From Rickettsiales bacterium (GTDB taxonomy: Bacteria; Pseudomonadota; Alphaproteobacteria; Rickettsiales; CANDYO01), in NCBI GenBank assembly GCA_049653745.1, contig JBASGW010000073.1, positions 22,924 through 86,923 of the forward strand: DNA of 64,000 nucleotides, written 5' to 3'. The notes beneath the pieces were generated by a model, which was not told the DNA's origin, searched no databases, and saw only the letters and a list, made by a program, of their open reading frames with translations. Shown here piece after piece: positions 31,554 to 35,939 of the stretch (positions within the stretch are counted from its first letter, which is position 1; each line of letters starts with the position of its first letter). Both the position numbers and the translations under genes were made by a program.

Positions 31554-34500
31554 ATGTTCTTTAGTAAGTTATTATCTATGATTGTTAGAAATAGTCTCAC
31601 TAAAGATGCTTATAAGTTAATATTGCTTTTTTTTATTTCTCTAGCTTTTAATAATCAAACTTTAGCTGCTGGATCTGGATATGCTTCATCGAACCCTCCA
31701 GATTTTTCAGTTTTTCCTCCTAAGTTAAATTGTCTAGAACAGTGGTATACAATTACTTGGGTTTCTACAGCTGATAATGCAACTTTATTTGTACCAACTG
31801 TACAAGTTCACTATGATTCCATGACTGCTTGCATTGGTTTTGCGGGAAATATAACTTTAGGTACTTCAGGAAATAATTGCGGCTATATAGGTGCTTATAG
31901 ATATTGCGCTAGAATGGCTGGAGAGGATGAAGATTATAATCATTTTGCTTGTAGCACATTTGGCTCTAGCTGTACCTATGGCGGAACATATAATTGTTCA
32001 GTGCAGCATGATGGTGCAAGTAATGCCACTGATTATGACAAAGATTATGATTGTTGGGGCTATTATGATTGTTCTTGCCCAGGCTGTCGCGATATATGCG
32101 CAATGAGAGTATGTGTTTATTTAGATCCATCTCAAACTTATGGTGTTAATGAGACTGATGATAATGATGAGAACTTTATGCCATATCATGAGTCAGTTGT
32201 TGCAGATGGTAAAAGTGCAACTGGTAAAACTGTATATTTTAATACAGAGGTTGATAAAATAGGGGATGATGCTTCAGATTCTGGATCTGCAGCTTTTACT
32301 GACACTAGTCATAATAATGGTGCAGTTGGCTGCGTGGATATACCCATTGGGCCATATCCGCCTCCATATTGCGATCCTATTATAGGATCTGTACCAGTTG
32401 GTAATACTGCTAATGTTTGTCAATATTCTCCTGAATTTGAATTGAGCGAAACAGAAGATGATGCTGGGGATGCTGGAAATTATGAGCAGGTTTCTTCAGT
32501 AAATTTACCTTGTGAGATATCAACAAATAACACTGGTGGAACTCCTGGAAATTCTAATGCTTTTTATAATATTTTTGAAAAGCCCTTAGTTAGAATATAT
32601 TTTAGCAACCCACTTCCTTTATGTGCTCCAGGATATACTGCTCCTACTAATGGAACTCAGAATGATGTTTGCTTTCAAATGCAAACAAATTTAACTCCAG
32701 ATCAAATAGCTGCCAATAATCAAAATTTAATACCAGTATGTAGTTCAGCTACAGGATCTTCTACAGAAAATTGTATTACCTTTCCTTCCGGTAGAACAAC
32801 TGGTCCAACGGGAAGTAGTGATGTTTTTGGGAATCAATATCAATATTTTAGAATGTATTACAATGTAACTAATAGCTCCACACCTACAGTTATTGAGCCC
32901 TATGTTTACTATAATCCAGCGGATTATACATCCACACCCCTTCCTAATCAGGTAGTGGCAGGTCTATATGATTCTTATTATATAGATATTACTGATCTAG
33001 GTTGTAGTGGTAGTTCAATTTGTACTAAAACAGTAGGCATGGTCGATTATACAAATACCGCAAGAGATTTTGGAGCTTTTATTGATTTAGGAACGGATCC
33101 TTACACAGGTCTGCCCAGCTCTGGAAGCGGTGATGGAACTCAAATATGTGTTGATGAAATTAGTGATGCCAATGGTAATATGCCAATCGGCTGCTTTAAT
33201 CGTCCAATGATGTTTTCTCCAACAGTTTCTCCATGTTTAACTCCTGGGAGTTGCTTTTTTTCCAAGAGTGCTACGAATATTGCTCAAAATCCAAGAATTT
33301 CTTTCCAAGTGGGACGAAAATTTACTGACATTGATGGAACAACAGTTAATCCTGAGCCTGGAGTTATTGGGATAGATATTTCTTCTAGTGATGCGCCTAT
33401 AACTTACTGCATTCAGGATGACAATAATACAAGTGGACAAGGTACAACTTCTGATACTACGCCTTGTACAGTTTATAAGGCTAAATTATTTTCTGCATAT
33501 ATTACGGATGATACTAATTATTCTTTAGATTCTGATCCAAATGCGGTGGATGGAACAGTTACTCCATATAAATCTGGCACTCAATATACTGGAGGTATGC
33601 AGTATGCAAACTATGTTTATTGTCGTGGAGGAACGCAAATTTGTTTAACAGCTGATAATAATCCTTATAAAACAGTAGTTACTAAAGTAGTTAGTGTGAG
33701 CACTACTGAAAATGGTGAGGCTAAAACAACTCTAACTCCAAGTACTATTTTAACTGACCGGATTATTCCACCTTATCCAGTCCCTGGAAGCACAACAGAA
33801 ACTTATCCTTTAGATAATACTGTGCTTTATAATCCTGAAGTAAATAATTGGACAGGAACATATACATCAACCCAAGTTATATTTGGTTATACAGCCACAG
33901 TAAATGGACAAACTTCATATATAGAAGGCCAGGGGTGCACCGATACAGCAGGAATGACCTGCTGCCCAACTTCAGATGGAAAAACTTGCAATACTGGACA
34001 AGTAGCTTACCCATCTCCTTTATTATGTAATTGCACTAATAGTGTAGGAAGCGCATATGAATGTTCTAATTCCCAATGCACAGTGGCTTTTGAAGAAACG
34101 GTTACCAATGAAGATGGAAGTTTACTAGGATATCAATATCCAGGAAATTATGCTAATTATAGTGCGGCTTGGTCTGGTTGCACTTATAATCCTGCCGCAA
34201 CTATTAGCACAACAACTAATGGTGTAACTAAAACTACTACTGAACCTATGACTCAATGCTCTGCTGCTAATACTTCTTATAATCCAGCGATACAGCAATA
34301 TAGTGTAAGAGCATTAACTTCTATGGAATTAGGTTTATGTGTGCCAATATTGCAGCCCTATTGTGGTGCGCTTTCCACTTATGATGAACCAGATGGTTAT
34401 GCTTCATGGCCGCAAACATCGGCTCAAGATTGGGCAACAGGAACATGTGGCGCTGGCATGGTAAATTCAACGGTTGGAACTACGTCCACTTCTCCAACCC

Positions 34501-35939
34501 GTCAATGTGTATATCAAGATACTCAAGATTCTCAAGGTAACCCTGTGATGCAAGCAAATGGCTGCCCTGAATTTACTCAAGTTTGGGGGCCTGTGGTAAA
34601 TCCTTGTGCAGTTGCCCCTATGCCTGAGTGGTGGCCAGGAACATTTTTATATGGAAAATCTAAATACCAAGGCGCTATTATTAATCAATTTAGTGTTAAT
34701 TATTATTACAGAGCTGGAACAGGTTCTAATACAACTTTCACTCCAAACTCTTATAATGCGGATCCATTTAATTTATATAAATCAAATTCTACTCCTGTAT
34801 CTCCTGAGCCATGGAATAGCACTTACAATTCTTGTAAAAAAGATGGAGCAGGTGATACCAGTAACTTTAAGAGAAGTGTTACGAATGGAGATCAAGAAAT
34901 GCTTTATCTAACCCAAGCGCAGTGGAGCATGTTGTGGAGTGATAATAATTTAAGTTGGTTATTAACTTCTTCAGATGATAGTCAGTATGATGGTTGTGCA
35001 GTTTATGATCTAAAAGGTCAAATTAATGCAACTTATTCTAGCAATGTTGTGCCAGCAATGAAAATTTGTAAGCATCAAGACAATATTTCTTTCTCTTTAG
35101 TTGATTTAGGAAAAAACAGCTGTTCAAGCACTCCTTGTGATATGGCTGATGGAAATTGTTCTAATAGTTGTTATGGCTATGGTAATACTCATTATATGAT
35201 GCAGTCTAATATTGCTTCATATGCTGCTTATGTGAGTGCCAATATTCAAAATGATAACTCGTTTAATATAACTAATGAGATATCATCTGTTTATGATACT
35301 AAAATAAATCATGGTATAGTTATCAGTAGATTAGGTTTTGGAATAGTTTCTGTTACTGATGCTTCTAACCCAGCTATAATTCCAAGTGTAAAGAATTTTG
35401 CAATAGAATCTGCTGAATCAGTTACAGTTAAATTAAATTTTGATCATTACTATGAAGGTAGCCATCAGCATGGTTGTACATGTTTCGGTAGCTGTTGTCA
35501 GACCTCTCATACAACTTGTAATACTTATAACCCAGGAATTACTACGTCTCCTCAGTCTTGTGTTACATCTACTGATATGGATACTTACACTCCAAATACT
35601 TCATATTATTCAACTAATAAGCCATTGTCAGTGTTTAGCAGAAGCATGAATTTATCTTCAGCTCAAAGTGCTGTTTCATATATGTTTTCTTCTGAAAATA
35701 TTAATAATAGCACTCTTTATTATACCCCTAATTTTAGTTCTATTTGGATAGCCAGATGTTGTAATGATGATAATCCTGAAGTGGATATGTGTAATCTGCA
35801 AGTTAACATAAGTAGTTATAAATCTGGTAATAGCGCTATAAACACATCAATGTTTTATTGGTCATCTCCCACCTCTTATAATGTTAGTAATCCAGGAACT
35901 ACATCCTGGAGCTCAACAACTGGAATGCCGCTTAATTAG
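31554..35939 (+). CDS. Giant secreted Cys/Thr/Ser/Asn/Gly/Tyr-rich protein of unknown function
   Basis: 1461-aa uninterrupted ORF starting 6 nt after the virB4-like stop. N-terminal signal peptide '...KLILLFFISLAFNNQTLA|AG'. Roughly 60 Cys by hand count, in clusters such as 'DCWGYYDCSCPGCRDICAMRVC', 'CTDTAGMTCCPTSDGKTCN' and 'GCTCFGSCCQTSHTTCN'. No other hydrophobic segment and no C-terminal beta-barrel signature. Confidence 0.85.
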   Translation: MFFSKLLSMIVRNSLTKDAYKLILLFFISLAFNNQTLAAGSGYASSNPPDFSVFPPKLNCLEQWYTITWVSTADNATLFVPTVQVHYDSMTACIGFAGNITLGTSGNNCGYIGAYRYCARMAGEDEDYNHFACSTFGSSCTYGGTYNCSVQHDGASNATDYDKDYDCWGYYDCSCPGCRDICAMRVCVYLDPSQTYGVNETDDNDENFMPYHESVVADGKSATGKTVYFNTEVDKIGDDASDSGSAAFTDTSHNNGAVGCVDIPIGPYPPPYCDPIIGSVPVGNTANVCQYSPEFELSETEDDAGDAGNYEQVSSVNLPCEISTNNTGGTPGNSNAFYNIFEKPLVRIYFSNPLPLCAPGYTAPTNGTQNDVCFQMQTNLTPDQIAANNQNLIPVCSSATGSSTENCITFPSGRTTGPTGSSDVFGNQYQYFRMYYNVTNSSTPTVIEPYVYYNPADYTSTPLPNQVVAGLYDSYYIDITDLGCSGSSICTKTVGMVDYTNTARDFGAFIDLGTDPYTGLPSSGSGDGTQICVDEISDANGNMPIGCFNRPMMFSPTVSPCLTPGSCFFSKSATNIAQNPRISFQVGRKFTDIDGTTVNPEPGVIGIDISSSDAPITYCIQDDNNTSGQGTTSDTTPCTVYKAKLFSAYITDDTNYSLDSDPNAVDGTVTPYKSGTQYTGGMQYANYVYCRGGTQICLTADNNPYKTVVTKVVSVSTTENGEAKTTLTPSTILTDRIIPPYPVPGSTTETYPLDNTVLYNPEVNNWTGTYTSTQVIFGYTATVNGQTSYIEGQGCTDTAGMTCCPTSDGKTCNTGQVAYPSPLLCNCTNSVGSAYECSNSQCTVAFEETVTNEDGSLLGYQYPGNYANYSAAWSGCTYNPAATISTTTNGVTKTTTEPMTQCSAANTSYNPAIQQYSVRALTSMELGLCVPILQPYCGALSTYDEPDGYASWPQTSAQDWATGTCGAGMVNSTVGTTSTSPTRQCVYQDTQDSQGNPVMQANGCPEFTQVWGPVVNPCAVAPMPEWWPGTFLYGKSKYQGAIINQFSVNYYYRAGTGSNTTFTPNSYNADPFNLYKSNSTPVSPEPWNSTYNSCKKDGAGDTSNFKRSVTNGDQEMLYLTQAQWSMLWSDNNLSWLLTSSDDSQYDGCAVYDLKGQINATYSSNVVPAMKICKHQDNISFSLVDLGKNSCSSTPCDMADGNCSNSCYGYGNTHYMMQSNIASYAAYVSANIQNDNSFNITNEISSVYDTKINHGIVISRLGFGIVSVTDASNPAIIPSVKNFAIESAESVTVKLNFDHYYEGSHQHGCTCFGSCCQTSHTTCNTYNPGITTSPQSCVTSTDMDTYTPNTSYYSTNKPLSVFSRSMNLSSAQSAVSYMFSSENINNSTLYYTPNFSSIWIARCCNDDNPEVDMCNLQVNISSYKSGNSAINTSMFYWSSPTSYNVSNPGTTSWSSTTGMPLN

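Follow-up and report, generated by a model that had tools for sequence, protein, structure and literature searches.

A cysteine-rich, putatively secreted protein encoded beside a degenerate VirB4 paralogue in Rickettsiales

The subject of this analysis is a stretch of 64,000 nucleotides from a Rickettsiales bacterium (contig JBASGW010000073.1; referred to here as the window), and within it a gene on the forward strand, at positions 31554–35939, that encodes a protein of 1461 residues with 63 cysteines. The question raised by this locus is what a very large, apparently secreted and cysteine-rich protein might be doing in a bacterium for which an intracellular lifestyle is plausible. The initial annotation, made from the sequence alone, read the protein as a disulfide-rich extracellular one of eukaryote type, not a typical bacterial envelope protein, and did not mention that the gene immediately upstream belongs to the VirB4 family of type IV secretion systems (T4SS). 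The view of it as an atypical orphan does not hold. The gene belongs to a conserved module of two genes, and its linkage to the VirB4 gene is tight, ancient and co-diverging. The upstream gene is read here as RvhB4-II, a VirB4 paralogue of the rvh T4SS, and the cysteine-rich gene as its operon partner. Because its gene forms half of this module, the protein is most plausibly bacterial in kind, a component of the envelope or of a secretion system.

The gene pair and its distribution

The upstream gene (29166–31547, forward strand) encodes 793 residues and matches PF03135 (E=2.6e-30) and TIGR00929 (1.8e-141), the second match spanning residues 21–785 and falling below the curated cut-off. The cysteine-rich open reading frame (ORF) starts 6 nt after its stop codon. 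Loci of this type were gathered using the cysteine-rich protein, and independently using VirB4, and each downstream ORF was scored with hidden Markov models (HMMs) of the cysteine-rich family. The resulting set comprises 90 non-redundant VirB4 loci, namely 89 public loci and the window.

A family member lies directly downstream of VirB4, on the same strand, in the window and in 32 of the 89 public loci, with one further locus (L032) being marginal. The partner is present in all members of the window clade (the window, L001–L003, L006, L007, L021 and L030) and in all 21 loci of a Rickettsiaceae clade that includes Candidatus Tisiphia, 'Ca. Rickettsia vulgarisii' and the endosymbionts of Pyrocoelia, Bryobia and Pseudomimeciton. 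The other loci that carry it are L031, from a Dermacentor endosymbiont, and L033, L037 and L039. A separate look-up in R. typhi found the same pair, in the gene order tatC-serS-virB4-partner-terC...PKMT, the partner there having 1169 residues.

The genes on either side of the pair vary with lineage: the atp operon and topA in the window, serS and terC in Rickettsia, and MFS genes elsewhere. In genomes that are shuffled and reduced, adjacency that persists through a full turnover of the flanks usually reflects functional coupling. The two genes are also close together, with no more than 36 nt between the VirB4 stop and the partner start in 28 of 32 scored pairs, a spacing that suggests translational coupling. 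Pairwise identities of VirB4 and of its partner are strongly correlated (Pearson r=0.95, Mantel p=0.001). The window VirB4 clusters with those VirB4 proteins that carry the same partner gene, and the VirB4 proteins followed by VirB6-like ORFs with 7–9 transmembrane segments (the virB3-virB4-virB6 type) form separate branches.

The nucleotide-binding motifs differ between these groups. VirB4 proteins that have a VirB6-like gene next to them retain intact Walker motifs (GPxGxGKT and DEAW). In the window VirB4 the Walker A motif (30483–30509, forward strand) reads GPGDSVKKT on motif comparison, rather than GxxGxGK[ST], and the Walker B motif reads IIIDDA, rather than hhhhDEAW. The gene is flanked by the atpHAGDC operon upstream and by the cysteine-rich ORF and then a convergent topA-dprA pair downstream, and a Pfam scan of 34 window ORFs found no VirB3, VirB6 or other T4SS domain. 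Most of the remaining window ORFs were identified by synteny. The 118 bp that separate atpC from virB4 contain a promoter-like site, a strong sigma-70-like pair of hexamers (TAGACA-16-TATAAT) that matches the consensus at 11 of 12 positions (29094–29121, forward strand); the number of such sites across the region equals that expected from shuffled sequence.

These features are those of the published rvh-II set (Gillespie et al. 2009, 2015), in which RvhB4-II has degenerate ATPase motifs (PMC2653234, PMC4676284) and is described, in the literature searched, as isolated from other vir genes (PMC2653234, PMC4676284, PMC12803143). The window VirB4 likewise has degenerate nucleotide-binding motifs and lies away from other vir genes, and the partner gene is linked to the RvhB4-II paralogue in Rickettsia, Tisiphia and many metagenome-assembled genomes (MAGs). 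Some of the loci have published assignments. The VirB4 that precedes the partner gene in the Pyrocoelia endosymbiont (L018) is HJD56177.1, which Table S1 of PMC11077975 gives as RvhB4-II and which shares only about 30% identity with the window VirB4. The same study classes UBA6187 contig_46975 (L032) and RIFCSPLOWO2_01_FULL_40_26 scaffold_42357 (L046) as RvhB4-II. Motif decay, context and clustering together suggest that the window VirB4 is RvhB4-II. The published rvh-II members are RvhB4-II, RvhB8-II and RvhB9-II, and unlike these the cysteine-rich partner is missing from the literature searched.

One clade is informative about the age of the pairing. In L032, L033, L035, L037 and L039, VirB4 is followed by an ORF with a signal peptide and 27–47 cysteines. 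The family HMM detects this ORF significantly in L033, L037 and L039, marginally in L032 and not in L035. The Walker A and B motifs of VirB4 are intact in L032, L033 and L039, with GR in place of GK in L035 and EEAW in place of DEAW in L037. Since the VirB4 proteins of L033, L037 and L039 have the partner and keep intact or nearly intact Walker motifs, the pairing seems to be older than the loss of the ATPase motifs.

Two further observations were made on these loci. In another VirB4 clade (L055, L061 and L071) the downstream ORF encodes a lipoprotein-like product of about 400 residues, with a lipobox-like ...AACGS and 11 cysteines; the family HMM does not detect it, and it may be a different partner. 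In the Candidatus Tisiphia locus L009, the partner gene is followed, at 12794–15208, by a gene for an enhancin-like protein of 804 residues (Peptidase_M60) that carries a mucin-binding module.

The protein and its family

The initial annotation described the protein as having about 60 cysteines and a bias towards Thr, Ser, Asn, Gly and Tyr, and this description is accurate. The 63 cysteines amount to 4.3% of residues, 4.9 times the 0.9% found in 13 further proteins of the window; relative to the same proteins, Thr is raised 2.6-fold, Tyr 2.1-fold, Ser 1.6-fold, Asn 1.5-fold and Gly 1.3-fold. Pro is also raised, and Lys, Glu, Arg and Leu are 2.4- to 3-fold lower. Sequence inspection and hydropathy analysis bear out the Sec signal peptide predicted at residues 1–38 (31554–31667, forward strand), in which a basic n-region is followed by LILLFFISLAF and then by a cleavage site between TLA and AG. 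Its start is ambiguous between 31554 and 31578, because a near-identical NCBI protein (P0010, 1453 residues) begins at Met9, and the signal peptide is retained with either start. Signal-like N-termini are found in the homologues too. Beyond the signal peptide, no window of 19 residues has a Kyte-Doolittle mean above 1.0, in agreement with the earlier statement that no further hydrophobic segment is present. This excludes a VirB6/TrbL homologue, the VirB6-like neighbours of other VirB4 genes having 7–9 transmembrane segments. We infer that the protein is exported and forms disulfide bonds.

The gene has no internal periodicity. Tandem Repeats Finder (TRF) gives only two trivial arrays of 20–23 nt in the DNA, and hhalign comparison of all non-overlapping 120-residue segments reaches a top probability of 4.8%, as expected from the absence of periodicity noted by eye. 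The alternative-frame ORFs inside the gene are indeed minor, the longest being no more than 101 residues. Two other features had been singled out, and these fare less well. The cysteine string DCWGYYDCSCPGCRDICAMRVC, encoded at 32049–32114, is present as reported, but the clustering is no more than follows from composition: there are 16 gaps of six residues or fewer between cysteines, against 14.7±2.9 in shuffled sequences. The many N-x-S/T sequons are not a special feature either: the mature protein has 34, where shuffled sequences have 25.3±4.3 (p about 0.03), and 0 of 35 are kept in at least seven of nine aligned homologues. A reading of the protein as a sequon-rich N-glycoprotein is rejected on these grounds.

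The non-random feature of the cysteine framework is its conservation, not its clustering. All 63 cysteines are retained in a 92%-identical orthologue from an independent assembly (L105), and 38 of the 63 cysteine columns are invariant in an alignment of nine sequences of 34–50% identity, made up of the protein and eight full-length homologues found at 34–44% identity. The ratio of non-synonymous to synonymous substitution (dN/dS) between the window gene and L105 is 0.167, compared with 0.082 for virB4, 0.065 for topA and 0.070 for dprA. The cysteine-rich ORF is a real, intact gene under purifying selection; the earlier suggestion of strong selection on an intact frame was sound, and full-length homologues occur in dozens of genomes.

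The region common to all family members, including those of Rickettsia and Tisiphia, is a core of residues 233–1030 or thereabouts (32250–34643, forward strand), as judged from tblastn and HMM coordinates. It includes the motif GCVDIPIGPYPPPYC at residues 259–273 (32328–32372, forward strand), whose columns are invariant in two family alignments, with the pattern GCV[DE]IP[LI]GPYPPP[YL]C in the nine-sequence alignment; the Rickettsiaceae loci were recovered by searching with this motif. The C-terminal 430 or so residues (34644–35936, forward strand) are kept in the window clade, are the fastest-evolving part (dN/dS 0.25–0.32), and are not detected in the shorter Rickettsiaceae-type members. 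Family members range from 1000 to 1800 residues and from 40 to 77 cysteines. The largest seen is that of L021 (5747–11385), called at 1794 residues, with 77 cysteines over a stop-to-stop frame of 1821 residues; this locus also has an extra ORF of 84 residues between VirB4 and the family gene, and a TLC ATP/ADP translocase nearby. When 1.84 billion representative proteins were searched with a profile, just 86 clusters (at 50% identity) matched at E≤1e-3, so the family is rare and phylogenetically narrow. In addition there are 90 matches from Rickettsiaceae.

Within this narrow range it extends to pathogens. With the Tisiphia protein as query, matches at E of about 1e-194 to 1e-201 come from R. 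typhi, R. canadensis, R. asiatica (RAS_13510) and spotted-fever rickettsiae, all of them annotated, like the Tisiphia protein, as 'hypothetical protein', and no NCBIfam model exists for them. An HMM made from window-clade sequences alone finds the R. typhi protein with E=1e-12 for a space of 1.8 billion sequences, the match being collinear over residues 93–602 and 810–991. The VirB4 neighbour in R. typhi is RT0771, and from gene order the orthologue is probably RT0773, a protein predicted to be secreted by signal peptidase I (SignalP-positive), with no transmembrane helix and a periplasmic or outer-membrane location (Table S1, PMC3415449). By the same argument the R. prowazekii orthologue would be RP786. 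In R. conorii the accession offset makes RC1217 the RvhB4-II. The next tag, RC1218, may belong either to the partner or to a small adjoining ORF, and the literature places Rc_sR38, a cis-antisense small RNA, within it. A literature search by locus tag found the protein undiscussed, the only entries being the prediction for RT0773 and the antisense RNA of RC1218.

The absence of a recognisable fold, as first reported, is upheld. Neither the protein nor the family profile matched anything in Pfam, NCBIfam or the PDB sequences except for one spurious hit of 20 residues, and AlphaFold2 models have a pLDDT of about 36. A partial clue comes from a disulfide module at residues 915–1018 or so (34296–34607, forward strand), delimited by the family alignment and by Pfam HRM matches in relatives. 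It is the best-conserved stretch across the family, with the pattern R..T..E.GLC...P.C.A....G.A.WP.T..G...G.C..G....P.R.C. The Pfam HRM model (PF02793) scores 27.7 bits on this module in the relative P0060, above the gathering score of 26.2, and lower scores are found in P0042 (19.3), R. typhi (15.8), the spotted-fever group (15.5) and Tisiphia (14.8), the last of which also has a Sushi match of 14.5 bits. The segment of the window protein itself has no Pfam match, and the best PDB hit of the module profile, the ectodomain of the GHRH receptor (2xdg), is not significant (E=0.3). The module of about 90 residues shares C...C...WP.T..G...C....R.C with the hormone-receptor ectodomain of class-B GPCRs and with the sushi fold, but more than 90% of the protein matches nothing, and only one relative is above the Pfam threshold. 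The module thus weakly resembles the eukaryotic HRM/sushi fold. The eukaryote-type character proposed for the protein is supported to this extent, in one module that makes up less than 10% of it, and not by any Pfam match of the window protein.

Possible roles in the rvh secretion system

On the basis of the gene context, we give about an even chance to the hypothesis that the cysteine-rich protein, rich in disulfides and located in the periplasm or at the surface, is an accessory of the rvh T4SS and the operon partner of RvhB4-II. The gene would be co-transcribed and translationally coupled with virB4-II. Sec would export its product, which would be oxidised once in the periplasm and would act, there or at the cell surface, as an accessory of the rvh machine. 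RvhB4-II could then be a non-catalytic platform for its assembly, and the HRM/sushi-like module a candidate ligand-binding element. The most specific role that seems plausible is a VirB5-like one, as a stalk cap or as a component of the pilus tip or of host contact. In the Agrobacterium operon, virB5 is placed after virB4. The cysteine-rich gene occupies this same position, and rvh has no VirB5, which makes a VirB5-like role plausible and, in terms of context, attractive. The rvh system of Wolbachia assembles pili without VirB5, in a manner described as 'unresolved' (PMC12407924), and the papers that report the lack of VirB5 likewise give no known function for the rvh-II paralogues (PMC2653234, PMC4676284).

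The comparison with VirB5 is one of position and location. VirB5/TraC, the minor pilin that forms the stalk cap and pilus-tip adhesin, also carries a signal peptide, is found in the periplasm or outside the cell, and can be encoded directly after virB4. Unlike the present family, it is a helical, cysteine-poor protein of about 220 residues. The window protein, at 1461 residues, has no Pfam or NCBIfam match at E≤1 and is not a VirB5 homologue. What we infer is association with the T4SS, possibly as an adhesin or tip component. The bolder proposal, that the family is the missing extracellular part of rvh, a giant disulfide-knotted replacement for VirB5 that serves as stalk cap, pilus tip or binder of a host receptor, bears a eukaryote-like HRM/sushi module and is assembled or docked by an ATPase-dead RvhB4-II, is doubtful.

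Several observations weigh against a role in the rvh machine. A shared operon alone is no proof of a shared function. In searches of Pfam, NCBIfam and PDB, and with hhalign, the protein resembled neither VirB5 nor TraN nor any other part of a T4SS in sequence, and the AlphaFold2 models of residues 36–860 and 840–1461, from nine-row alignments, have mean pLDDT values of only 36.1 and 35.9. The assignment of the window VirB4 as RvhB4-II was made with no copy of RvhB4-I seen from this genome. A large VirB4 clade has no adjacent family gene; it includes L046, which has been called RvhB4-II (PMC11077975) and whose contig ends 119 bp downstream. RT0773 is missing from the list of experimentally surface-labelled R. 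typhi proteins (PMC3415449). No match to the family is named as Anaplasmataceae, Wolbachia or Orientia, and a universal substitute for VirB5 would be expected in Wolbachia, which makes pili; most matches are unnamed, so that absence from these groups cannot be concluded.

Some of the same observations would suit a protein that works independently of the T4SS, for example as a structural protein of the periplasm or outer membrane or as an adhesin released by another route, and that shares the virB4-II transcript for historical reasons. We regard this as possible, though we do not favour it. It would account for the lack of homology to T4SS parts and for the many VirB4 loci without a cysteine-rich gene, and the neighbours of rvhB4-II are treated as 'non-T4SS genes' in the operon predictions for R. 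parkeri (PMC12803143). It does not readily account for an adjacency that outlives the turnover of the flanks all the way from the MAGs L033, L037 and L039, where the Walker motifs are intact or nearly so, to R. typhi, nor for the co-divergence of VirB4 and its partner and the spacing that suggests translational coupling. Export in two steps is an unlikely explanation of a different kind. A protein of the pertussis toxin type would be exported by Sec, fold and form its disulfides in the periplasm, and then cross the outer membrane to the host by way of rvh or rvh-II. Pertussis toxin and its Ptl system provide the precedent, in that a Sec-exported, disulfide-bonded protein is taken from the periplasm by a T4SS. 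The Sec signal, the many conserved cysteines and the lack of a membrane anchor would all fit, as would the eukaryote-like HRM/sushi-like module and the faster evolution of the gene (dN/dS 0.17, against 0.07–0.08 in its neighbours). However, RvhB4-II is without the ATPase motifs needed to power export (PMC4676284), whereas the VirB4 of Ptl is functional, and the toxin has no sequence relation to the cysteine-rich protein. A core that stays collinear across very different hosts is also more what one would expect of a machine part than of a host-specific toxin.

Two remaining alternatives start from known surface proteins. TraN of F-type conjugation systems is a cysteine-rich, Sec-exported T4SS accessory in the outer membrane that contacts the partner cell and stabilises mating pairs, and the occurrence of a gene for a cysteine-rich protein with a signal peptide adjoining a VirB4-family gene, together with the resemblance of the rvh machine in situ to the F-type apparatus (PMC12407924), invites the comparison. 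That the present protein is a stabiliser of this sort is nevertheless highly improbable: when the family profiles are compared with F-plasmid TraN by hhalign, the probability is 0.1–0.2%, there is no match to the TraN models of Pfam or NCBIfam, no relative was found on 72,556 plasmids, and T4SS class and protein size both differ. Any resemblance to TraN can only be one of functional analogy. As for an autotransporter, a Sca-type passenger or a repeat adhesin, the size, signal peptide and Ser/Thr-richness of the protein are all that speak for it, and we consider it refuted for practical purposes. The protein has no C-terminal barrel or other translocator domain (no PF03797 match, and no Pfam match of any kind), has no repeats, and ends in ...GMPLN with no terminal aromatic residue, as the initial annotation had concluded on similar grounds. 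The reading that we retain as the most economical is that of an exported, disulfide-stabilised accessory of the rvh T4SS.

Other genes of the window and wider significance

Some other genes in the window are worth recording. At 22866–24146 on the reverse strand, 7.4 kb upstream of the cysteine-rich ORF, there is a gene for a 426-residue Glyco_transf_90 protein (PF05686, 1.5e-34) of the CAP10/POGLUT family. Eukaryotic members of this family O-glucosylate cysteine-rich EGF repeats, and it is conceivable that this enzyme glycosylates the Ser/Thr- and Cys-rich protein. A protein of 1196 residues, mostly ankyrin repeats (9631–13221, forward strand; Ank_2, 5e-150), is of the kind typically regarded as candidate T4SS effectors in intracellular bacteria. 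A DXD glycosyltransferase of 346 residues (53530–54570, forward strand), with a match to the TcdA/TcdB-type catalytic domain, resembles glucosylating toxins and effectors, and lies near a gene for a 605-residue protein with DUF3431 (49974–51791, forward strand). A phasin gene (15248–15877, reverse strand) implies polyhydroxyalkanoate granules, which would be unusual for a reduced genome of the Rickettsiales type. Two predicted proteins, of 456 residues (5341–6711, reverse strand) and 240 residues (44859–45581, forward strand), have no Pfam match.

What is new is an uncurated protein family that is plausibly a variant T4SS accessory. The module that it forms with RvhB4-II reaches into human-pathogenic Rickettsia and is undescribed in the literature searched. 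Should the linkage prove functionally empty, the family would be just an uncharacterised one of the envelope. If the protein is exposed at the surface, it would be a conserved candidate antigen or adhesin, and its HRM-like module a rare bacterial example of a eukaryotic ectodomain. The orthologues in R. parkeri, in R. typhi (probably RT0773) and, judging by gene order, in R. prowazekii (RP786) place it in species that are experimentally tractable or medically important. Two questions have stood since 2009, namely the role of the degenerate Rvh-II paralogues and the working of rvh, with its Wolbachia pili, without VirB5, and an exported partner conserved beside rvhB4-II is a concrete candidate for both. 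If the family is indeed the missing extracellular part of rvh, this would explain why the rvh-II duplication has been kept across the Rickettsiales, human pathogens included.

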